Origin: a virus
Taxonomy: Duplodnaviria > Heunggongvirae > Uroviricota > Caudoviricetes
IMG/VR virus record: IMGVR_UViG_2778261394_000006
Coordinates: 1-47,808 of that record
DNA length: 47,808 nucleotides
Reading direction: 5' to 3' (one strand)
How positions within the stretch are numbered: the first letter of the stretch is position 1; each line of letters opens with the position of its first letter. The position numbers and the translations under genes are program-made. Of this stretch, positions 6,869-29,663 are shown one piece after another. The notes beneath the pieces are model-generated. The model did no database searches, was not told where the DNA came from, and saw only the letters and a list, made by a program, of their open reading frames with translations.

Positions 6869-8029
6869 TTATTCAACCTCTTCTAAACTGCTCACTCTGG
6901 ACCCTCGGCGGAAATTATCATCATTTTTAACATACTCGTATGAATCCAGAATCAAACCAGATATGCGAAGTATATCTTCCGGATTAGTTATATGTATCCT
7001 TTTACCATCCGTATCAAGTCGAGCTCGTCTTATTTCATTCAACTGAACTTCACTAAGCGAAATAGGTAATGTTATAAATGAAGATTTTTTATCATAAAAT
7101 CTTAACAGCCATCTATTAGTTTTACCATTCAATAGTACACCAAAATATGACTCAGTATCTTTATATTCTATATTATCTTCTGTTTGTATGATTTGTTTTA
7201 CCCTTTCAAATAGTTCCAATTCTTTGGCTGTGGTTATTATGTTGGGGTTTTCTTCATCAACAATGGCGTTATTAACTTGTGTATCCGTTGCATCATTTTC
7301 TTTAGTTTGCTCTACCGGTTGTGTAGATAGCCCGGAAACCACCATTGCGCTAACAGCGCGCTCAACGGCCTGTTTAACTAATGGAGTCACGAACTCAAGA
7401 AATCTCTGATTAAGTTGTCTCTCAATATTTGAACGACTAGCAACATATCGAACAAACTCCAGATCAACTTCACGAAGACTAGAACTGATTGTTTTAGTAA
7501 ATGAATTCAAATAAACACTTTCTTCAGCCAGTGTCCGCAAAGCCTCTGGTTTGAATTTATCATAACGAAAACGAAATAATTGTGTAATATCGGAGTGAGT
7601 TAGAGAATCCATTCTTATTTTTAAAAACGGCGTTGAATCCATTATGTTTTTTTGTTTCAAATCCGTAAAAAAACGCCATTCAACACCATTTGTAATGGCT
7701 GATATAGTAACTTCCGGTGTTGAATTAAAATATCTTGATAGCTGTGGGCAGTGATTATCAATTTGTTCTGAAAACGATTTCGCCTCAATGAACATCACAG
7801 GAACATCATGACAAAATAAAGCGTAATCAACCCGTTCATTAGCCTTAACCCCGGGGAAGTCAGCACTATACTCAGCTTTGACTTTTCTTGGATCATACGG
7901 AGTAAAACCAAGAATATCTAGAAATGGCATAATGAGTGCTTGTTTTGTCGTTTCTTCAGTTGTACAAAACACCCCCATTTTTGCAACATGCTCTGTGTGT
8001 ATTTTTAACTTATTTGCAAAATTTTCCAT
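6869..8029 (-). CDS. Moron: restriction-endonuclease-like protein (N-terminal PD-(D/E)xK, HsdR-N-like motif), C-terminal domain unknown
   Basis: Start at second Met (MENFANKL) preceded by GGAGGAG; motif EETTKQALIMPFLDILGF...VDYALF...FIEAK; markedly AT-rich; own upstream AT-rich region and downstream terminator. Confidence 0.6.
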   Translation of the reverse strand: MENFANKLKIHTEHVAKMGVFCTTEETTKQALIMPFLDILGFTPYDPRKVKAEYSADFPGVKANERVDYALFCHDVPVMFIEAKSFSEQIDNHCPQLSRYFNSTPEVTISAITNGVEWRFFTDLKQKNIMDSTPFLKIRMDSLTHSDITQLFRFRYDKFKPEALRTLAEESVYLNSFTKTISSSLREVDLEFVRYVASRSNIERQLNQRFLEFVTPLVKQAVERAVSAMVVSGLSTQPVEQTKENDATDTQVNNAIVDEENPNIITTAKELELFERVKQIIQTEDNIEYKDTESYFGVLLNGKTNRWLLRFYDKKSSFITLPISLSEVQLNEIRRARLDTDGKRIHITNPEDILRISGLILDSYEYVKNDDNFRRGSRVSSLEEVE

Positions 8030-8178
8030 GCTTGTCTCCTCCATGGTAACAATATGTATTTTGCAAATCCGAAATAATATATGTCAATATGCTCCAGCTT
8101 AGAAAATTACTCGCCCCCCTAAAATATCTCTCTACAGCACTCCAAACCAAGGTAAAAGTTTTATCATAAAACTGTGAT

Positions 8179-21320: not shown

Positions 21321-22134
21321 GTTTGCCCTTCTCCGTTAAAAATTCGTCGGGTAGTTTCTGAGGGGCGTAGATCGGCAGAGCATCGCAACTGCAATAAACC
21401 TCCTCCCCGGCAGCAGTGATTTCGTCATAAAAACCATATACGGGCTTAATAAGCCCCTGCTCCAGCGCCCACGAATCGCGGAGGAGATAAATTTTCTCGT
21501 CGCGCTCTTTGTGGTCCTGTCGGTATTTGTAGCCCGGACGCCGCCAGTTAGAATGCCAGCGCAGAGCAATCGCACCACTCTGAACAGCCAGCAGATACTT
21601 AACGTTGCTCGCCAGCTTATGTCCCTGGTCAATTGCCACCCGGCGACTGATAAAATCCATATCCTTCACGGACTTCTGAAAACCGGACTTCACTTCCCGG
21701 CGATCAATTTCGCTCACCCCGTCAGGCGGAATGGACGTAACCCATCCCTGAAAACGCTGTATGGTTTTCTCGATAGCCTGTTCGCGGTTGAGTTTTATCA
21801 GGTTGGCACTGGCGAAAATTCGCCTGTCGAGTTCCTTACGAAACTCAGGTTTCAGTTTTTCAACAGTGATTTTTTTAGGGCCATCAGGAGGCTGATCCCG
21901 TAATGCCCCGCCGTCGATGACAAGACGGCTGTAGATAGCGGTGAGATGTTTTCTGGCTACGGTATCATCAGGGGTTTCTCGCTGAGCGGCTACACGGAGT
22001 TTCCGGCACCATTCGAGCAATGATTTTTCGCTATCCCACCCGTGATTTACGTAGTAGTTAACGGCATCCGTCAGAACCTCATACAGCGTCCTGATCCGTT
22101 TCTTCTTCCTCACCGCCCGGCTGGAAATTGCCAT
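21301..22134 (-). CDS. Putative head morphogenesis protein (Mu F-like position)
   Basis: ORF after portal; start uncertain (overlaps portal 3' end). Confidence 0.45.
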   Translation of the reverse strand: MAISSRAVRKKKRIRTLYEVLTDAVNYYVNHGWDSEKSLLEWCRKLRVAAQRETPDDTVARKHLTAIYSRLVIDGGALRDQPPDGPKKITVEKLKPEFRKELDRRIFASANLIKLNREQAIEKTIQRFQGWVTSIPPDGVSEIDRREVKSGFQKSVKDMDFISRRVAIDQGHKLASNVKYLLAVQSGAIALRWHSNWRRPGYKYRQDHKERDEKIYLLRDSWALEQGLIKPVYGFYDEITAAGEEVYCSCDALPIYAPQKLPDEFLTEKGKREFNRA

Positions 22135-23518
22135 CAGGCGTCTCCTGCTTCGGTGGTTCATAATTCGCCAGCGCGTCCACATCAATGATGAGTGGAGCTT
22201 CGCCATAGGTTTGCGTGGCATTAACAAGGCTTGCCAGCCATTCAGTGACGGCGGCACGGTTTTCAGGATCAACCTGTGGCGACACGGCAGAGAAAAGTGC
22301 TATCGCCTGTTGAATCACTTTACTGTCGCTTTCCCGGCGTTTGTCCGGCGACTCCTCCACCAGCTCCTGCCATGTCGCGGTAAATTCACGTCGCCACTGG
22401 TAAAACGTGGTTTTATAGTCATCAGTTATGATGTCCGGGTAATCATTTTTCAGCGACTGATAAAATTCCTCGTTCCAGGCGATGTACTGCACCAGGCGTT
22501 CGAAATAATCCATCACAGGTTCAATCTGCTGGCGTACACCATCGATATACTGGCTGATAGCTTTCGAATCCTCAGTTCCTTCACCGAAACCATTCGAGAA
22601 AGCCTCCTCCTTGATGAGAATCGCGGGAACATCGCTACCTGATGCAATATCAGAAATAATGTTGTCGCGGGCGGCATTTAGCGCGCCATCGATGTTTTGT
22701 AAATTCAGCGAGGTAACGTCCTCATCCTTCCCGATACTAAGCACACCTTTATTTTTTGCCTCTTTGACATTTTCCCTTTTTCGTCCCGTGGCGGCAGCCA
22801 TGATCCCGTCAAGTTTCGAACCATACTGCACAACTTTAGCCACCAGTACGCCTGCCTTCTGGCTGACGAGATCATTCGCCTCCATCGTATTGATATAGGA
22901 TTTCAGGGAATAAAGAACACGCTGAAACACGCTTCGCCCGGTGAATCCGAACGATGAACTCTGAAACTCCAGATAAATCGGTGTGCCATTGAAAATTTTC
23001 AGTGTGCGTGACGGATGCCAGTCTTTTCCGCCAATCTTCAGCTTTTTATTGGCTTCCTGGAAAAACGGGCTGTTTGGGTTCTGGTCAGTCACCATCGAAC
23101 CAGAAGCGTTCAACGGGTCCCACGCGTTGATATACACATCATCTTCTGTCAGTCCGAATGTCGGAAGCGGCTCACGACATGGAACACTGTCGGTGCCCAC
23201 GCCGATCGCTGCGGCACCGTAGCAACGAGACAGAAAAAACAGATTTTTAATCTTCTCGTTAACCTTCATACGTTCCCATACCTCCTGGAAACGCCGCACA
23301 ACCCGCTCGTCAGGGTCTGTCTCCACGTTGTACTGACGCGGCTTACACATCGCCATAAGTATGGGTTTTTCGACAAGTTTTCCGCCCAGAGGATGGAATT
23401 GCCACAGCAGCTTACACAATTCATAGCCAATATCGGTTCCCGGCTGAATTTCTTCAGCCTCAAGAATACGCATCAGTGCTGAACCGAGGCCGCCAGTAAT
23501 CTCGATCTCTGCCATCAA
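22079..23518 (-). CDS. Portal protein
   Basis: 479 aa, acidic C-terminus; immediately downstream of terminase large subunit. Confidence 0.7.
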   Translation of the reverse strand: MMAEIEITGGLGSALMRILEAEEIQPGTDIGYELCKLLWQFHPLGGKLVEKPILMAMCKPRQYNVETDPDERVVRRFQEVWERMKVNEKIKNLFFLSRCYGAAAIGVGTDSVPCREPLPTFGLTEDDVYINAWDPLNASGSMVTDQNPNSPFFQEANKKLKIGGKDWHPSRTLKIFNGTPIYLEFQSSSFGFTGRSVFQRVLYSLKSYINTMEANDLVSQKAGVLVAKVVQYGSKLDGIMAAATGRKRENVKEAKNKGVLSIGKDEDVTSLNLQNIDGALNAARDNIISDIASGSDVPAILIKEEAFSNGFGEGTEDSKAISQYIDGVRQQIEPVMDYFERLVQYIAWNEEFYQSLKNDYPDIITDDYKTTFYQWRREFTATWQELVEESPDKRRESDSKVIQQAIALFSAVSPQVDPENRAAVTEWLASLVNATQTYGEAPLIIDVDALANYEPPKQETPDGNFQPGGEEEETDQDAV

Positions 23519-23533
23519 AAATATCCTGATTTT

Positions 23534-24862
23534 TTACAACGCCGCGTAATTACCGTGCGCGATGATCAACCCATAGGTGTAACAATCGAAAAGGTCATCA
23601 GCACGTTTATGCGCGTTTTTATCCGCCAGGTGGAATCCGGCGATTTGTTTTATGAGGTGGTTTGCGGTGGTACGTTTGAATGAAACGGTCTTGTCGTAAG
23701 CCTCCCGGACGATTTTGCACATCCCCTGATAGTGGTAGCTGGATGCCATCACCGCCCGTTCGTCTTTACCTTTGCTGGTTAGTGCCGATTTAATCGGCGT
23801 CATATCCCAGCCTTCGGTTTCCGCCTTCTGGTTGAGGATTGCCCCCATCGCGGCGTCTTCCATAAAAATGCCCTGGCAGCCCAGACGCGGACGGCATAAT
23901 TTCGCGAGGCGCTCGAGGTTGTCATAAACGCCGGGGATATATTCAGGAAGCAATGACGCTTTAATTTGCGTCACATCCCAGTCAATAATCGTCAGTTTTG
24001 GCTCGTCCGAATACGTTGACTCATAAGCGAAATACACCACGCCAGTACCATCATTTTCGGTCCCGCCTTTCAGCGCCGTATCCATCACTGCGAAAATCAT
24101 GTCGCAGTACGGCGGCATCTCAATCGGCTGACCGTCCACCAGCAGCTTATCGACATCGAGTAACGCGTCTTTGGACCAGTCCACGAACTCTGCAAGATAT
24201 TCCTGCTGCCAGACGCGCGGATCGGATTTCTTCTCCGTTTCCTCCAGTTCTTCTTTCGGAATATACGGATTCGATGAAGTTGGCGCATGGTGCATGACAA
24301 ATCCCAGGGATTCATCGTGGCATATCGCGTAGAAAAAATTGCTCTCGTCGATACCGTTTGGTGTGGAAAATACCCACGCACAGCCGCGGTAATCGACAAG
24401 CGTCGGGCGTATAGCTCGGGGCCAGATTTCCTCGAGCATTTCCGGCGATTTAGTGAATGCTGCCTCATCAATCAGCACAGCGTGATATTTACGCCCACGC
24501 CCGGCCAGTTTGTTATTGTCCGTTACCCAAAAGTCGATGCGCCCCCCATTACGGAGAATAATGCGCTTTTCATTTTTTGACTGGCTGAGGATCAGCGGTT
24601 GCAGAACGGCGCTAATTTCATCCCAGATTTCCTGGTACTGGCGGTATTGTGCGGTAAAAATCCCCACCCTACCCGCGATAAGTTGCCCGGTGGTAGGAAC
24701 GGCAAATTTCCGCGTAGCGAAACTGGTAGCGATGTTTACCAGCATCACCGTTTTACCCCAGCGACGACCACAGCATACCGCGTGGAAGCGTTCCTCTATT
24801 GCCGCCGTCCATGCAGCTATTTGCCCCTCATGAGGTTTTGGGAGGTAGATTTCAATCGACAT
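23534..24862 (-). CDS. Terminase large subunit
   Basis: Walker A CGRRWGKT, Walker B AVLIDEAA, C-terminal nuclease-like Asp motifs. Confidence 0.85.
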   Translation of the reverse strand: MSIEIYLPKPHEGQIAAWTAAIEERFHAVCCGRRWGKTVMLVNIATSFATRKFAVPTTGQLIAGRVGIFTAQYRQYQEIWDEISAVLQPLILSQSKNEKRIILRNGGRIDFWVTDNNKLAGRGRKYHAVLIDEAAFTKSPEMLEEIWPRAIRPTLVDYRGCAWVFSTPNGIDESNFFYAICHDESLGFVMHHAPTSSNPYIPKEELEETEKKSDPRVWQQEYLAEFVDWSKDALLDVDKLLVDGQPIEMPPYCDMIFAVMDTALKGGTENDGTGVVYFAYESTYSDEPKLTIIDWDVTQIKASLLPEYIPGVYDNLERLAKLCRPRLGCQGIFMEDAAMGAILNQKAETEGWDMTPIKSALTSKGKDERAVMASSYHYQGMCKIVREAYDKTVSFKRTTANHLIKQIAGFHLADKNAHKRADDLFDCYTYGLIIAHGNYAAL

Positions 24863-25943
24863 TATCCACTCCCGGCATCGGCAGAGAGTTGTGGATAATT
24901 ATTTCGTTATTCTCACCACCCACGCCTTTTTTGAGGTTTTCAATCTCAGTGCGCAGCTTTTCGTTGCGAAGCCTCAGTCCTTCAAGCTCCAGATCATTGC
25001 GACTGTCAGTTGCACCACCAGCAGAACTTCCTTTCGTCGCCATTATCAGCTTGATAAGTTCGCGCCGGGCGGCAGCCTTATCCTCCAGCAGGATCTCAAC
25101 ACCAAATTTCCCGAGCTTTGCCCCTGCATATAATTGTCGCGCATCCCCATCAAGCAGAGTGGTATCAGCCATATAAAGCTGTCCCGTTCCCTCACCGCAG
25201 CACTTCGGACAATCCGGATTGGGTATGGCGTTATCAACAAAGCCGAGGCCTCCATATTCCGGCTCGGGTTTGCCATCTCTGGAGGCCTGTGCCGCTGCCT
25301 TATCGAATTCTGCAATATCACGCCACTGGTAGAGATGATTCTCGCCCCAGCAATAACGGCAGTTAACACGGCGAAATTGTGCCAACTGATTGGGGTCGGC
25401 CTGGACAATAGCCATCAACTGACTCACCAGTAAATCCAGGTCTGCGGTATAGCGTTTCTGATACTGATTGCGGAAGTAGCTGATAGCACGATAAACCCTG
25501 GCATTTCTAAGCATACGGCTGGCGTTGCTGTTAGCTGTCGCACCTTGCCCCTCATAACCAGCCAGTCGGTATGCCTCTGTCGGCTTTTTCCCCTGAGCAA
25601 CAAGCATCGCAAACTTAGCCTGCTGGTCAGAAATGCCGAATTCATCGGGGCAGAACGAAAATTCCTCCGCGTCGCCCTCATTCAGGCACGCATCGGATAC
25701 TGGCTTTTTTTTCTGAGATTTTCCGTTCCGCTTTTGCGCAGTCTGCGCAGATTTTTTCTGCGCACTTTGTTGCGCAGTTTTGCGCATTTCTGTCTGCGCA
25801 TTTTTCGGAGGTTTTTTGATGTAACGACGGGCTGTTGCGTAATTCAGTCCCCTTGCCTCACACCATGCCACCGGAGATACACCGGAGCGGGTGTATTCAG
25901 CAATATATTCCTGCTGCAACGCCCCCCAGTCCGGTCTGCTCAT
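24852..25943 (-). CDS. Putative terminase small subunit / DNA-recognition protein
   Basis: N-terminal HTH-like segment, Cys cluster CPKCCGEG, 11-bp overlap with terminase large start. Confidence 0.5.
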   Translation of the reverse strand: MSRPDWGALQQEYIAEYTRSGVSPVAWCEARGLNYATARRYIKKPPKNAQTEMRKTAQQSAQKKSAQTAQKRNGKSQKKKPVSDACLNEGDAEEFSFCPDEFGISDQQAKFAMLVAQGKKPTEAYRLAGYEGQGATANSNASRMLRNARVYRAISYFRNQYQKRYTADLDLLVSQLMAIVQADPNQLAQFRRVNCRYCWGENHLYQWRDIAEFDKAAAQASRDGKPEPEYGGLGFVDNAIPNPDCPKCCGEGTGQLYMADTTLLDGDARQLYAGAKLGKFGVEILLEDKAAARRELIKLIMATKGSSAGGATDSRNDLELEGLRLRNEKLRTEIENLKKGVGGENNEIIIHNSLPMPGVDNVD

Positions 25944-25946
25944 CAG

Positions 25947-26156
25947 TTAGTCCTGATTTTTATCCACCCTGAGTAGTTCACGCAGGGCAAAGGCATCCCC
26001 TTTTCTGGCAAGCTTAAACAATGCCGCCCGTAGTTCGGCTTCACCTTTCGCTCTGCCCTTACGGATGGATGCGTAAAAATCTGTCATTGCTTCCCGATTT
26101 TCTTTCAGTCGGTTCAGATCAACATCCAGAACGTCAGCGATTTGTTGTGCAGTCAT
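25947..26156 (-). CDS. Small hypothetical protein
   Basis: ORF trimmed to internal Met MTAQQIADVL; basic helical. Confidence 0.35.
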   Translation of the reverse strand: MTAQQIADVLDVDLNRLKENREAMTDFYASIRKGRAKGEAELRAALFKLARKGDAFALRELLRVDKNQD

Positions 26157-27066
26157 CCGGCACGCTGCCAGAGACTCGACTTTCGAATACGGAATCATTT
26201 GTCACCCCCATTGATATGCAGGGTGTCTTCTTCCTGTATTTTTCGTGAAGGATTTTTACTGCAGCGTTGTTCCAGGTGACCTGATGGTGAATGCGTTTAT
26301 GGCTGGCCCCCATCAGTGAGATTTTTACGCACGAGGGCGCATACATGACGGAGTAAAAACTTTTAACGTAGGTTCCGGAATCCAGATACAGCTCGGTCAT
26401 TCCGCCGCTGTTTTTCTGCGTCTGTTTCTGCCCTAACTGGACAGCACCGATCGTCATAAACAATTCACCACAGCGACCGAGATTCGTGTACGTATTCACA
26501 TCCTCGTTAATGCGCCCCATGAATGAGAACGGTCGATCAACCGAACAGATAAAGCTGTTCATTGCCTTGCGTTTCACCCACGAAGCATGGCCGCCATTGT
26601 CACCAAGAAAATCCCCGCCCTGCGACATAGCGATGGAAAGCGCAGGTATTGATTCGTAGTACGCCAGCATTTCAGAAAGGATCGCATCCAGTTTTCTTAT
26701 CGGGAAATAGGCCTGGTCATAGTTGCGATCCACCCGAAACTGGAACTCGTGATAATCATCATCGAGCTGAATGAAGTATTTACACCCGACCAGTTTTGCC
26801 AGGTCGAAACAGGCATTACGGGCGTAAAAAATTGAGCGGCGATCACCGAAATTATCGGCTTCGTCAAAACGACTGGCTATATCGGCTTTGGAAAACACCA
26901 GCACCTGTTCACCAAATTCAGCTATGTACTGATGCCGTGTCTTATCTTCATCATCAACAACGATAAAAACTTTTCCGGTATAGCCAGCACGACGCAACGT
27001 CCGGTAAGTCAGAACTTTGTCCGGGCGCCCGTGAGTCAGAATAAAGGCGCAAAAATCATCACGCAT
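26134..27066 (-). CDS. Hypothetical protein with glycosyltransferase-A-like DxD signature
   Basis: Start at second Met preceded by GGGAGGAGGAGG; motifs VFIVVDDED and QLDDDY; 8-bp overlap with ParB-like gene stop. Confidence 0.5.
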   Translation of the reverse strand: MRDDFCAFILTHGRPDKVLTYRTLRRAGYTGKVFIVVDDEDKTRHQYIAEFGEQVLVFSKADIASRFDEADNFGDRRSIFYARNACFDLAKLVGCKYFIQLDDDYHEFQFRVDRNYDQAYFPIRKLDAILSEMLAYYESIPALSIAMSQGGDFLGDNGGHASWVKRKAMNSFICSVDRPFSFMGRINEDVNTYTNLGRCGELFMTIGAVQLGQKQTQKNSGGMTELYLDSGTYVKSFYSVMYAPSCVKISLMGASHKRIHHQVTWNNAAVKILHEKYRKKTPCISMGVTNDSVFESRVSGSVPDDCTTNR

Positions 27067-27850
27067 ATTCCTCCTCCTCCCCGCCATGCATGATCTCCAC
27101 CATGCGCTGCGTCATCCGGACAAATCCATTTTCAATAGCCTGCTGATAATCAATGATCACCAGCGCCGACTCCTCAAAAAGGTTCTGAATTTCAGCGGGG
27201 GCGTGAGCGTAATAGTCCGCAATTCTGCTGAAATTAAACACCGTGTGACGTTCTGCCGCGCACAGGAGGAATTTTTCGATATCAGGCTCAAGGGACGCCG
27301 AACGTATCCGGCTGACCAGCTCCTGAGTTTTCGTATCGTCGCACAGTTCACTGATATCCGGTTTATCGCCTGACGGCTCATAAACAGGCGTATCAATTTT
27401 CGTCGTGTACGGCTCCTCCTCATTTCCTGTACCTGGCAAAACATCCGTCAACAATTCATCAATTTCTGTTGGGCTGAATCCTGTCAGGGAGACATCAAAA
27501 TCAGCATTGATTAGGTCCGACAGCTCCATCCGTAACAGATCTTCATCCCAGCCAGCATTCATCGGCAGGCGATTATCTGCCAGGCGGTACGCCTTTTTTT
27601 GGTCATCCGTCAGACCAGACAGAACAATGACCGGAACCGAATCCATTTTGAGCACTTCAGCCGCCATAACACGACCGTGACCCGCAATAATTTCGCCCTT
27701 TTCATCAATCAGCACTGGATTAGTCCAGCCGAATTGCTTAATGCTTTCTACCAGTTGTGCCACCTGCTCAGGGCTGTGTGTCCTGGCATTGTGTGCATAC
27801 GGAGATAGTTCTTGTAACGGGCGATAGACGATCTTCAATTTCTCGCTCAT
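27059..27850 (-). CDS. ParB-like nuclease domain protein
   Basis: N-terminal ParB/Srx-like motif (NPVLIDEKGEIIAGHGR); acidic C-terminus. Confidence 0.65.
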   Translation of the reverse strand: MSEKLKIVYRPLQELSPYAHNARTHSPEQVAQLVESIKQFGWTNPVLIDEKGEIIAGHGRVMAAEVLKMDSVPVIVLSGLTDDQKKAYRLADNRLPMNAGWDEDLLRMELSDLINADFDVSLTGFSPTEIDELLTDVLPGTGNEEEPYTTKIDTPVYEPSGDKPDISELCDDTKTQELVSRIRSASLEPDIEKFLLCAAERHTVFNFSRIADYYAHAPAEIQNLFEESALVIIDYQQAIENGFVRMTQRMVEIMHGGEEEEYA

Positions 27851-28450: not shown

Positions 28451-28828
28451 TCAGCGTTTCAACTGAAAGTGAGGCCCGTCTTTCAGTGTTTTCCAGTCCC
28501 CGCCCCATTCGATGGCAGTTCCCAGCTCTGCGGCAGCCTGCTTAAATGCCTGCGCGATTTTCTCGTACAGAGGCCAGTCCCATGACACCTGGCTGCCAAC
28601 CCAGGCAACAACATCCACCGCATCACCGGTCAGGTGGCGGCTGTTCATGGTCTGGCTTTTCCCTTCCGCGACCAGCTGTTTCTGGCGTTCTTTCGTGCGC
28701 AGCCCTTCCGTAATACCGAAATCAACCTCCGTCAGCTCCAGCGCACGGCGAACGACAGCAACCAGCTGTGGTTTAACGCCCTCCAGATTTTTTTCACTGC
28801 GACGGCTGAATCTGAATTTACCCGACAT
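28451..28828 (-). CDS. Endolysin, peptidase M15-like (L-alanyl-D-glutamate peptidase type)
   Basis: SRHLTGDAVDV and GGDW motifs typical of M15 peptidases; ATG preceded by GAGGTGA. Confidence 0.75.
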   Translation of the reverse strand: MSGKFRFSRRSEKNLEGVKPQLVAVVRRALELTEVDFGITEGLRTKERQKQLVAEGKSQTMNSRHLTGDAVDVVAWVGSQVSWDWPLYEKIAQAFKQAAAELGTAIEWGGDWKTLKDGPHFQLKR

Positions 28829-28830
28829 AT

Positions 28831-29106
28831 TCACCTCAACAATGGAAAGATTTTTGTGACGTTCCCGCGTGCGCGTATCACCAGCACGCAGAACAGCAGG
28901 TTAAAAAACACTTCCAGCCAGCCCGTTGCTAACGGGCGACCACACAGATAGCTGAGGGGCGCAAAGGCATACAGCAGCATCAGCAGCCACGCCAGCCATG
29001 ACATCAGCGGTTTATGTCTGGAATCACGGCGACGATAAAAAAAGAGCGTCAGCACGATAACCGTGCATAACGCTACATTCAGCAATCCGGGAATGTTACT
29101 TAACAT
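28831..29106 (-). CDS. Small membrane protein (holin/antiholin-like)
   Basis: 91 aa with hydrophobic segments; GGAGG before ATG; between holin and endolysin. Confidence 0.45.
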   Translation of the reverse strand: MLSNIPGLLNVALCTVIVLTLFFYRRRDSRHKPLMSWLAWLLMLLYAFAPLSYLCGRPLATGWLEVFFNLLFCVLVIRARGNVTKIFPLLR

Positions 29107-29488
29107 TGCCGCCTCCTCCACCCCGCAGACGGGAGAACAGGCCGGACACCAGTGATGCAATATCCTGCTGGTGGATGAACGAGAGAATCTTCACCGACAC
29201 CACTGACACCAGCACTGCACACAGTGCGTCGACAGGCGCACCGTCAAACCCTGTATGCTTTACCAGCCAGGATGCCAGAACCTCTGCGCCCAGCACGCCG
29301 ATAATGAACGACACCAGAAAATGCGCCGCCACACGCCAGGCTGAAAGCGCCTGCGGCATCGTTGCCACAAATAACGCCCCGGCGAACGCACCAAACACAA
29401 TCCCGAAATCCGTTCCGGTAAACAGCCCGAATACCGTCGCCCCGCCGAGCGCCACAGCCGTACCGGAACCGGATAAGGGTTCAGACAT
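29096..29488 (-). CDS. Putative holin
   Basis: Start MSEPLSG preceded by GGAGG; 2-3 predicted TM helices; first gene of lysis cassette. Confidence 0.5.
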   Translation of the reverse strand: MSEPLSGSGTAVALGGATVFGLFTGTDFGIVFGAFAGALFVATMPQALSAWRVAAHFLVSFIIGVLGAEVLASWLVKHTGFDGAPVDALCAVLVSVVSVKILSFIHQQDIASLVSGLFSRLRGGGGGNVK

Positions 29489-29507
29489 GCTTTTTCCTCC
29501 CACAAAT

Positions 29508-29529
29508 AAAAAAGGGCCTCCAGCGGCCC
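29508..29529 (-). terminator. Rho-independent terminator downstream of the AraC-family gene
   Basis: Hairpin GGGCC-tccagc-GGCCC followed by a T6 run on the minus strand. Confidence 0.55.
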
Positions 29530-29663
29530 GTAAAAACACCCTGTCAAAGGCACCCGCAGATGCCTTTTGTGTGGTGTTATCTGATGTGATGTGCGCCGGG
29601 CACGGCGCGGATATGAAAAAGGCCCGCCGCAGCGAGCCTGTTTTCAATGAGTGCAAAATTCAA

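Follow-up and report, generated by a model that had tools for sequence, protein, structure and literature searches.

A ParB-like protein and a TAGT-family glycosyltransferase are encoded by overlapping genes beside the terminase genes of a Rac-like Escherichia coli prophage

Results

The gene pair and its coordinates

We analysed the IMG/VR virus record IMGVR_UViG_2778261394_000006 over positions 1 to 47,808 (this whole stretch of 47,808 nucleotides (nt) is referred to as the window), which is a Rac-like lambdoid prophage of Escherichia coli with 100% identity over the query to strain GmM062. The subject of this study is a pair of genes in this prophage, the first encoding a protein of 263 amino acids (aa) with a ParB/Srx-like N-terminal domain and the second a 310-aa glycosyltransferase of the TAGT family. 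An earlier note, made from the sequence alone, had described two translationally coupled genes between the lysis cassette and the terminase; the flanking genes are indeed these, and the coupling is supported, as the two reading frames overlap by 8 nt and a Shine-Dalgarno-like (SD-like) run precedes the second start. The features of the pair are as follows (PGAP, Prokaryotic Genome Annotation Pipeline; ORF, open reading frame; pLDDT, predicted local distance difference test score):

27059-27850, minus strand: partner protein (ParB/Srx domain plus C-terminal domain), 263 aa, from the ORF list; Pfam ParB_N 1.4e-6, phrog_620 1e-89; full-length form of K-12 YnaK
27446-27850, minus strand: ParB/Srx N-domain of the partner, residues ~1-135, with AGHGRxxAA and ADN motifs
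27086-27418, minus strand: TAGT-associated C-terminal domain of the partner, residues ~145-255, conserved and outside any Pfam family
26134-27066, minus strand: TAGT-family GT-A glycosyltransferase, 310 aa; Pfam TAGT; PGAP "GREB1-related protein"
27059-27081, minus strand: coupling junction, with SD-like GGAGGAGGAGG at 27081-27070, the TAGT ATG at 27066-27064 and the ParB stop codon TGA at 27061-27059
26134-26211, minus strand: non-conserved, E. coli-specific tail of the TAGT protein, residues ~285-310; homologues stop at ~285-290 aa, pLDDT is below 50, and the segment extends into the beginning of the next ORF

The longest ORF for the TAGT protein runs from 26134 to 27087 and would give 317 aa. 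The true start is almost certainly the ATG at 27066-27064, because all homologues start with MRDDF, PGAP gives 310 aa, and GGAGGAGGAGG lies 4-15 nt upstream of it. We therefore dropped the start at 27087, and the length of 310 aa given in the earlier note stands. The ParB stop codon and the TAGT start codon share ATGCGTGA, which is the 8-nt overlap as read from the sequence, with a GGAGG run in front of it. Homologous loci typically show overlaps of 4, 8, 11 or 14 nt where gene calls or conserved starts make the junction readable.

The downstream gene encodes a TAGT-family glycosyltransferase

The 310-aa protein matches the Pfam family PF20691 (TAGT) with an E-value of 9.9e-35 and a score of 120.8 bits, far above the gathering cutoff of 27.5, and the match covers residues 15-229 of the protein and positions 4-205 of the 205 positions of the profile. 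It also matches PHROG 842 (3.7e-103), and PF20691 was present in 240 of 240 homologues among the matches listed. A GT-A fold with a DxD motif and flanking R and ED motifs is seen in the predicted structure and the alignment. Searches of the NCBIfam and PADLOC profiles gave no match to the protein, and a sequence search of the PDB found no solved TAGT relative. TAGT is a modifying family, so that a match to a known non-modifying one, which the earlier note had named as part of a refutation, was not what the search returned.

The alignment that we used contained 36 sequences from E. coli, soil and gut viral contigs, relatives of Lactobacillus phage c5 and the haloarchaeal virus HHTV-2, with identities of 37-82%. 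Its invariant columns include R14, D38, D41, D102-D103-D104, N187 and D189, followed by TQ216-217, GGMT221-224, GTYxKSFY231-238, R258, H260, H261 and W265. Both motifs that the earlier note had taken as GT-A signatures are present (KVFIVVDDEDKT and IQLDDDYHEF) and fall in the invariant columns D38, D41 and D102-D104, although only QLDDDY is the DxD motif proper, VVDDED being a second conserved acidic cluster. The arrangement R14...DDD102-104...ED188-189 corresponds to the R...DDD...EDY/F signature of JGT and phage GT-A enzymes, which is shared by the trypanosome JGT and by metaviromic GT-A enzymes proven to act on 5-hydroxymethylcytosine (5hmC) in DNA (bioRxiv 10.1101/2023.12.21.572611). The T2/T6 beta-glucosyl-HMC-alpha-glucosyltransferase is likewise a Pfam TAGT member that acts on DNA (PMC13216743, PMC13390438). 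We nevertheless reject the PHROG/RefSeq name "beta-glucosyl-HMC-alpha-glucosyltransferase" for the protein studied here, as the hydroxymethylcytosine (hmC) pathway is absent and identity to the T4-like homologues is only 23-26%. The isoelectric point (pI) of the TAGT proteins ranged from 4.7 to 9.5 across the sequences compared. The alternative label "nucleotidyl-transferase" found no specific support, nor did a role in virion modification.

The upstream gene encodes a two-domain partner protein

The ParB/Srx N-domain of the 263-aa protein carries two boxes, AGHGRxxAA (G57, G59, R60) and ADN (D92, N93), which are invariant columns in the partner alignments and align to the GERRxRA and EN boxes of Spo0J, as expected for the nucleoside triphosphate (NTP)-binding domain of ParB. 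Outside its own family (phrog_620, 1e-89), the best matches of this domain are the N-termini of ParB-fused DNA methyltransferases (phrog_498, 3e-51; PADLOC MTase_II, 9.7e-39, residues 10-145). Pfam revealed no methyltransferase domain in the partner, which ends after its 115-aa C-terminal domain. A function as a partition ParB is rejected: Pfam found no helix-turn-helix (HTH) family in the protein, PGAP annotates no parA in the prophage, the partition profile TIGR00180 scored 37.2 bits and thus below its cutoff of 58.45, and the residues beyond 135 form a different conserved domain. What the earlier note described as a "ParB-like nuclease" consists of two domains, and it is the C-terminal one that forms the conserved partner of the glycosyltransferase.

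The C-terminal domain comprises ~115 aa and is predicted to be helical, following a linker that is modelled with low confidence. It matched no Pfam family, and it is characterised by the motif YTxKIxxPxYEP ... FLxxAAxRHxVFNF..IADYYxH...QxLxExSALVIID..AIxxGF, with a conservation that spans E. coli, Lactobacillus phage c5, Nocardia phage NTR1 and Haloarcula virus HHTV-2. Among 1.84 billion cluster representatives searched with phmmer, 1,198 contained the domain (clusters at 50% identity; 1,014 at E<=1e-10). It was located at the C-terminal end in nearly all of the best 150 of these 1,198, mostly in ParB-fused proteins of ~240-310 aa and in some of ~130-200 aa. Stand-alone versions of 129-139 aa lie directly upstream of the TAGT gene in Vibrio phage SRILMA and in the loci L091, L112 and L158. 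As judged by sequence, the constant companion of TAGT is the C-terminal domain and not the ParB fold, since some loci encode that domain alone upstream of TAGT.

In Vibrio phage VB_VaC_SRILMA (195 kb; locus L176, 5459-6888), the TAGT gene is found in the replication module together with primase, exonuclease and helicase genes, away from the terminase, and it is preceded by the 139-aa protein that consists of the C-terminal domain only and has no ParB fold.

The N-terminal part of the partner is known from E. coli K-12, where YnaK (b1365, 87 aa, Rac prophage) shows 95% identity to it over 86 residues. The C-terminal domain, TAGT, the terminase and the head genes are all deleted from K-12 Rac. 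YnaK is thus a deletion stump, so the reference gene misleads the annotation of intact copies, and as K-12 Rac has lost the remainder of the pair, work on K-12 says nothing about the intact module. In the genome identical to the window, PGAP splits the intact 263-aa ORF (27059-27850) into a "ynaK pseudogene (missing C-terminus)" and a separate 167-aa coding sequence, a split that we reject as an annotation artefact because the ORF is intact and under selection. YnaK/partner copies were also compared at L001 (20151-20942) and L178 (4378-4641).

The two genes are linked across distant viruses

Linkage was examined from both sides. The sample on the TAGT side consisted of 170 loci from E. coli genomes, IMG/VR contigs and assemblies with database homologues; the IMG/VR scan was repeated from a distant seed, as the scan led by E. 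coli gave mostly near-identical loci. The partner ORF lies immediately upstream of and overlaps TAGT in every one of the 170 loci that has upstream sequence. Of the 72 loci in the non-redundant set (TAGT less than 85% identical), 68 contained the partner cluster, which amounts to all of the informative ones (68/68): two of the other four contigs begin at TAGT, and in two the partner ORF was dropped by the gene caller but detected in the 170-locus check. In the reverse direction, TAGT was immediately downstream in 79/79 IMG/VR loci found with the profile of the C-terminal domain. Besides the pair and terminase/portal genes, no third conserved gene was found in the 72 loci.

The pair is usually situated just upstream of the terminase genes and adjoins at least three terminase types. 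The main cluster of the terminase large subunit (TerL; cluster c2) lies within 10 kb in 42/72 loci, with smaller TerL clusters elsewhere. Clusters related to the terminase small subunit (TerS) comprise a Sf6-type TerS-like HTH cluster (23/72), the 83-86-aa TerS-like ORF of the type seen in the window (c4; 15/72) and a Terminase_2 TerS cluster (10/72); a portal-sized cluster also reached 10, and all other clusters were fewer. HNH nucleases are often found directly upstream of the pair.

Viruses that carry the pair infect Proteobacteria, Firmicutes, Actinobacteria and Halobacteria (phage c5 and HHTV-2, for example), and in the complete 31.8-kb genome of phage c5 the gene order starts, after cos, with ORF1 (ParB) and ORF2 (TAGT). 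At least 80% of the 2.1-kb region was present in 866 of 5,426 complete E. coli genomes (~16%), and the pair also occurs in strain W and in isolated coliphages. Its invariance in the sampled loci, this frequency in E. coli and the presence in such distant viruses support the suspicion of the earlier note that the pairing is not incidental.

Distance-matrix correlations gave r = 0.59 for TAGT versus the C-terminal domain, 0.25 for TAGT versus the ParB N-domain, 0.24 for TAGT versus TerL and 0.36 for the C-terminal domain versus its own N-domain; these mirror-tree values ignore phylogeny and are only suggestive. The ratio of nonsynonymous to synonymous substitution rates (dN/dS) was 0.05-0.09 for TAGT and 0.11-0.14 for the partner, indicating purifying selection on both genes. 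From the sequence evidence, the TAGT protein is very probably an active nucleoside diphosphate (NDP)-sugar transferase and the upstream protein its dedicated partner.

These data bear directly on the explanation that the two genes are coincidental neighbours (a ParB-like nuclease or packaging accessory beside a transferase) or a decaying relic of a defective prophage. It could draw on the nicking activity reported for the ParB domains of ParB-methyltransferase proteins (PMC5512222), on the HNH nucleases upstream, on K-12 Rac with nothing but the 87-aa stump of YnaK, and on the many E. coli assemblies in which TAGT is truncated or fused to tail-fibre sequence. The linkage of 68/68 and 79/79 across terminase types and hosts, the partners that consist of the C-terminal domain only and are still attached to TAGT, the covariation of TAGT with this domain, the dN/dS values of 0.05-0.14 and the invariant active-site columns all contradict it, so that we regard this explanation as very improbable; the status of a relic is ruled out by dN/dS.

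In many E. coli proteins in the databases, the first ~230 residues of TAGT (97-98% identical) are joined to PF18906, PF09327, PF03335 or PF00877 (tail-fibre and other domains), for instance P0023, P0036, P0041, P0045 and P0007, and some ParB homologues are fused to Lom/Ail or terminase pieces. We interpret these chimeras as junctions left by deletions in Rac-like prophages undergoing decay, of which K-12 offers another example.

Accessory genes beside the pair

In some loci additional genes are situated between TAGT and the terminase or beside the pair. A UDP-galactopyranose mutase was found in L174 and L175 (8e-74), implying a galactofuranose donor in these phages, as the phage Glf is encoded next to the pair. 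A GalE-like NAD-dependent epimerase is encoded in L136 (6105-7082) and L104 (10876-11856), and its cluster is present in 5/72 loci. Extra TAGT copies were seen in L002, L104 and L174, of which L104 has two ParB-TAGT units. Other accessory genes encode a family 2 glycosyltransferase (GT2; L094, 3-1010), a radical-SAM/SPASM protein (L127, 6826-7791, and also L104), an amidoligase_2 with a GATase (L170, 7966-9711) and an N6/N4 DNA methyltransferase with NUMOD1 (L087, 7172-8179). Layouts with a glycosyltransferase and an epimerase, or with sequential glycosyltransferases, are those of clusters proven to glycosylate DNA, where the glycosyltransferase activity needed the partner epimerase (bioRxiv 10.1101/2023.12.21.572611).

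The human gut phage contigs L174 (8384-11951) and L175 (9232-11951) share the order HNH - (TAGT) - ParB - TAGT - UDP-galactopyranose mutase - TerS - TerL. In L006 (17837-20316), four consecutive GT2 genes follow the capsid gene, apart from the ParB-TAGT pair. This layout resembles the virion-glycosylation cassettes of actinophages.

Flanking genes and transcription

In the annotation of GmM062 the genes are ordered intR, xisR, ralR, recET, kilR, replication genes, a Q-like antiterminator, holins, an M15 endolysin, the pair, the terminase and the head/tail module. The minus strand of the window carries the pair plus the named prophage genes, and the pair follows the lysis genes and precedes TerS in the same orientation as both. 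The flanking features are:

25947-26198, minus strand: TerS-like helical ORF between TAGT and TerS, 83-86 aa; phrog_309 terminase small subunit 1.7e-22
24852-25943, minus strand: terminase small subunit TerS; Terminase_2 (Terminase_6N and phrog_51/phrog_2 are given for TerS and TerL jointly)
23534-24862, minus strand: terminase large subunit TerL; Terminase_2/Terminase_6N; phrog_51/phrog_2 (jointly with TerS)
28451-29656, minus strand: lysis cassette with M15 endolysin (28451-28834) and holins (28831-29656), from the PGAP annotation of the identical genome and the ORF list

The pair is likely to be co-transcribed with the late genes, since it has their orientation and the stretch from the endolysin gene to the ParB start contains a single terminator-like hairpin, a weak one at 28387-28362. 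No such hairpin was found between the pair and the terminase genes. The single promoter-like match is weak and lies inside TAGT, and matches of this kind are rarer than in shuffled sequence. We considered the 83-86-aa ORF as a third component of the module and rejected it, as it is TerS-like and follows TAGT in only 15/72 loci.

Several other genes of the window were recorded. A 298-aa ORF with an HTH domain according to PGAP (29664-30560, minus strand) is located between the Q-like antiterminator region and the holins, at the head of the late operon, an unusual site for a regulator; it may be a moron. In the baseplate/tail-fibre module, a 391-aa ORF (6869-8044, minus strand) has an HSDR_N / HSDR_N_2 type I R-subunit N-terminal nuclease-like domain; PGAP calls it "type I restriction endonuclease", PADLOC gave no match to it, and it may be stand-alone nuclease cargo. 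The early/nin-like region contains a convergent pair of low GC content (0.35-0.41), consisting of a 365-aa ORF (33245-34342, plus strand; PADLOC PD-Lambda-2_C 1.4e-41, PGAP "beta family protein") and a 192-aa ORF (34302-34880, minus strand; match to "cll" 2.4e-28, PGAP "sce7726 family protein"), and the segment 33245-34880 is probably a prophage-borne defence cassette. Directly after TerL, a 479-aa protein (22079-23518, minus strand) is labelled "anti-CBASS protein Acb1 family" by PGAP, whereas Pfam assigns it to Phage_portal_3 (1.9e-12); the Acb1 label is likely a misannotation of the phage portal.

Discussion

Proposed function of the pair

We tentatively favour the explanation that the pair is a late-expressed, ParB-tethered DNA glycosylation module with a non-classical acceptor. 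A self-contained module of two components would act on the phage's own double-stranded DNA (dsDNA) around packaging. Its TAGT component, with the DxD (DDD102-104) as metal/NDP-sugar site, would move a hexose from a UDP-sugar that may be host-made or, in some phages, phage-tailored. The ~115-aa C-terminal domain of the partner would bind or activate TAGT, and its ParB/Srx N-domain, which is probably an NTP-dependent clamp on DNA or a nickase module of the type fused to phage DNA methyltransferases, would bring TAGT onto dsDNA. Analogies are provided by the ParB that activates phage thymine dioxygenases on dsDNA and by the T4 alpha-glucosyltransferase that rides with the replisome. The acceptor would be other than the classical handle of 5hmC or 5-hydroxymethyluracil (5hmU), because no enzyme that generates hydroxymethyl-pyrimidines is encoded, and the expected gain would be that packaged DNA is shielded from nuclease-based defences of the next host. 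We only infer the physical contact of the two proteins, the DNA target, the timing and the anti-defence role.

DNA is suggested as the target by the family precedent (the T2/T6 TAGT and the JGT-like phage GT-A enzymes), by the N-domain subtype, which is otherwise fused to DNA methyltransferases, and by the finding that a phage ParB consisting of an NTP-binding domain (NBD) and a C-terminal domain (CTD), with no HTH, activates a thymine dioxygenase on dsDNA (PMC13229309). The accessory epimerase, mutase and extra-TAGT genes, which mirror the proven DNA-glycosylation clusters, point in the same direction.

A number of observations weigh against DNA glycosylation. In the prophage, neither PGAP nor a Pfam scan of the larger unannotated ORFs revealed a TET/JBP dioxygenase, a C5-methyltransferase or a dCMP/dUMP hydroxymethylase, and the dCMP hydroxymethylase and alpha-glucosyltransferase that make the T-even acceptor are both lacking from its PGAP annotation. 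The complete phage c5 genome has no annotated dioxygenase or hydroxymethylase and no ORF large enough for a dioxygenase, PF12851 is missing from the Pfam lists of 16 neighbourhoods, and a Pfam scan of 20 adjacent ORFs gave no TET/JBP or hydroxymethylase. These negatives rest on Pfam and clustering, by which a very divergent or distant enzyme would be missed. The linkage to TET/JBP (5mYOX) or another source of 5-hydroxymethylpyrimidine that is typical of TAGT is thus not seen here, and as the acceptor-making enzymes are absent, the textbook TAGT reaction cannot be assumed. The transferase reading of the earlier note is accordingly sustained as regards the family, which has DNA-glycosylating members, but its DNA-modification part is weakened by the absence of acceptor-generating enzymes. 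In addition, the partner is strongly acidic (pI 4.1-4.6 in 37/37 sequences) and has no HTH, so that any direct binding to DNA would be hypothetical. In the AlphaFold2 model, the conserved C-terminal third of TAGT (217-284) is of low confidence, as is the inter-domain linker of the partner (pLDDT below 50), and this predicted disordered linker contains an invariant linear motif with Tyr and Thr residues that might itself be an acceptor. Finally, the TAGT-related GREB1 glycosylates a protein (PMC7968844).

A stricter version of the DNA glycosylation proposal is that no hydroxymethyl handle is needed and the sugar is attached to a canonical base, the backbone or a terminus of DNA that carries no other modification, the ParB clamp opening or presenting the dsDNA. 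To our knowledge, unmodified DNA offers a hydroxyl acceptor only at its termini and glycosylation of canonical bases by a glycosyltransferase is unprecedented, which also counts against the broader proposal; we consider the strict version rather unlikely. If true, a DNA modification of a new class would be encoded in ~16% of complete E. coli genomes as well as in bacterial and archaeal viruses.

The lack of acceptor-making enzymes is also what a classical TAGT role would leave to be explained by an acceptor (5hmC, 5hmU or glucosyl-hmC) supplied in trans, either by the DNA of a co-infecting T-even-like phage, which would make the pair an anti-phage or inter-phage weapon of the prophage, or by a distant or unrecognised hydroxylase. 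This would agree with all characterised DNA-acting relatives, which use a hydroxyl on a hydroxymethyl-pyrimidine or on an attached sugar. E. coli does host T-even phages that contain hmC, thousands of divergent 5mYOX-like sequences lack Pfam annotation (O'Toole et al., PMC13229309), and the anti-phage idea for prophage glycosyltransferases has been raised in the glycosyltransferase-survey preprint (bioRxiv 10.1101/2023.12.21.572611). The pair is, however, situated in a presumed late operon that would be silent in the lysogen, and it also occurs in phage c5 (no annotated integrase and no ORF of dioxygenase size) and in an archaeal virus. Moreover, the only third clusters present in more than 10 of the 72 loci are the main TerL cluster (42), the TerS-like ORFs (23 and 15) and ordinary terminase/portal genes. 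Supply in trans therefore appears quite improbable.

Another explanation is O-glycosylation of a protein, in which TAGT would modify its own partner (the most economical version) or a packaging or virion protein. The candidate acceptor on the partner is the motif Y148-T149-x-K-I-x-x-P155-x-Y157-E-P159 in the predicted disordered linker, which is invariant from E. coli to the archaeal virus and lies in a region with pLDDT below 50. The precedent is the TAGT relative GREB1, which O-GlcNAcylates ERalpha (PMC7968844), and the C-terminal domain is the only gene product that co-occurs universally; the acidity of the partner and the lack of a hydroxylated DNA base fit this explanation as well. On the other hand, the N-domain subtype occurs elsewhere as a fusion to DNA methyltransferases, the accessory set (epimerase, second glycosyltransferase) copies that of proven DNA-glycosylating clusters, and glycosyltransferases for virion glycosylation elsewhere adjoin capsid genes, such as the GT2 genes of L006 that are apart from the pair. 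We know of no rationale for a sugar on a cytoplasmic ParB-like protein, and consider protein glycosylation the main alternative, though a rather unlikely one.

The acceptor could also be neither nucleic acid nor protein but an envelope polymer or a small molecule, or the enzyme could hydrolyse sugar nucleotides, with the ParB-like partner acting as an NTP-sensing regulator. ParB/Srx folds include kinases and NTPases without a DNA role (Srx, SerK and SbnI), and an acidic partner would suit such a function. Still, the hosts (E. coli, Lactobacillus, Nocardia and Haloarcula) have entirely different envelopes, the pair is linked to neither membrane segments nor envelope genes, and its conserved position is on the terminase side and not at the lysogenic-conversion end, which makes this explanation improbable too. 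The host-independent spread of the pair argues instead for a universal acceptor such as DNA, in line with the glycosylation module that we favour.

Novelty and significance

The TAGT family is already known, as is the co-occurrence of ParB, glycosyltransferase and terminase genes around phage 5mYOX genes. In the literature searched, the obligate two-gene ParB-CTD/TAGT unit is not described, nor are its defining C-terminal domain, its independence of TET/JBP and its prevalence in E. coli Rac-like prophages, and a survey of ParB-CTPases does not mention glycosyltransferases. The paper that reportedly defined TAGT, by Iyer et al. in 2013 (NAR 41:7635), lies outside this literature. We classify the pair as a known catalytic family combined with an obligate partner that is new.

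GT-A enzymes of the TAGT type are the workhorses of phage DNA glycosylation, and every characterised case needs a hydroxymethylated base. The pair, which is common in E. coli prophages, is a tractable representative of the majority of phage glycosyltransferase contigs, which lack a hydroxymethylation pathway. If DNA is modified, the chemistry would be new, and the resulting anti-restriction mark, likewise new, might interfere with sequencing and phage engineering; if the partner or another protein is modified, it would be the first counterpart of GREB1-type protein glycosylation in a prokaryotic virus. Either way, ParB-fold activators of DNA-modifying enzymes would be extended from dioxygenases to glycosyltransferases. 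Three annotations are also corrected, namely "beta-glucosyl-HMC-alpha-glucosyltransferase", "partition protein" and the split "ynaK pseudogene".

Comparison with known systems

The T2/T6 beta-glucosyl-HMC-alpha-glucosyltransferase shares PF20691, the GT-A fold and the DxD motif with the TAGT protein studied here, and acts post-replicatively on phage DNA. Homologues from T4-like Aeromonas phages that bear the name of the T-even enzyme align to TAGT residues 5-263 with an identity of only 23-26%, and the T2/T6 proteins themselves are not among the matches listed at E<=1 (40 of 50 records). The T-even enzyme, which attaches a second glucose to alpha-glucosyl-5hmC, needs the dCMP hydroxymethylase and the alpha-glucosyltransferase, both absent here, and a ParB partner has not been reported for it, in contrast to the pair.

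The metaviromic GT-A enzymes associated with C5-methyltransferases and 5mYOX, and the trypanosome JGT, are likewise JGT-like GT-A proteins with the R...DDD...ED signature (Burke 2021; bioRxiv 10.1101/2023.12.21.572611). Neighbourhoods of the metaviromic enzymes combine a sugar epimerase or sequential glycosyltransferases with ParB and terminase genes, and the same accessory types are found in some ParB-TAGT loci. However, an adjacent methyltransferase and dioxygenase supply the 5hmC or 5hmU on which these enzymes act, whereas the ParB-TAGT pair has neither of the two. About 65% of phage glycosyltransferase contigs (GT-A and GT-B together, with GT-A making up ~82% of them) are without 5mYOX or ThyS and have been treated as unlikely DNA modifiers (bioRxiv 10.1101/2023.12.21.572611).

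GREB1 has a homologous glycosyltransferase domain and is the source of the PGAP name, but it is a eukaryotic cytoplasmic protein that acts on ERalpha, with no ParB partner or link to DNA. K-12 YnaK belongs to the same prophage family and has the same position as the partner, of which it retains only an 87-aa stump.

The partner resembles in architecture the ParB of the 5mYOX176/ParB176 system (O'Toole et al. 2026, PMC13229309), an orphan ParB with NBD and CTD, without HTH or ParA, encoded beside its client DNA-modifying enzyme. A ParB of this type is required by the client enzyme on dsDNA and is often encoded near the terminase (PMC13229309). The client of ParB176 is a T-dioxygenase accompanied by kinase, AADT and GATase genes, whereas the client here is a glycosyltransferase and a dioxygenase is absent; moreover, glycosyltransferases are linked mainly to the ParB-independent 5mYOX subclass (O'Toole et al., PMC13229309). 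The likeness to ParB176 is one of described architecture and adjacency.

The ParB/DNA methyltransferase fusions (phrog_498; PADLOC MTase_II; Bce_0392 of B. cereus) contain the same ParB subtype as the partner (E-values of 1e-38 to 1e-51). Such fusions are also found near the terminase in lambdoid prophages. In them the ParB domain is fused to an S-adenosylmethionine-dependent methyltransferase, whereas in the pair the catalytic partner is a separate glycosyltransferase, with which contact is proposed to be made through the C-terminal domain.

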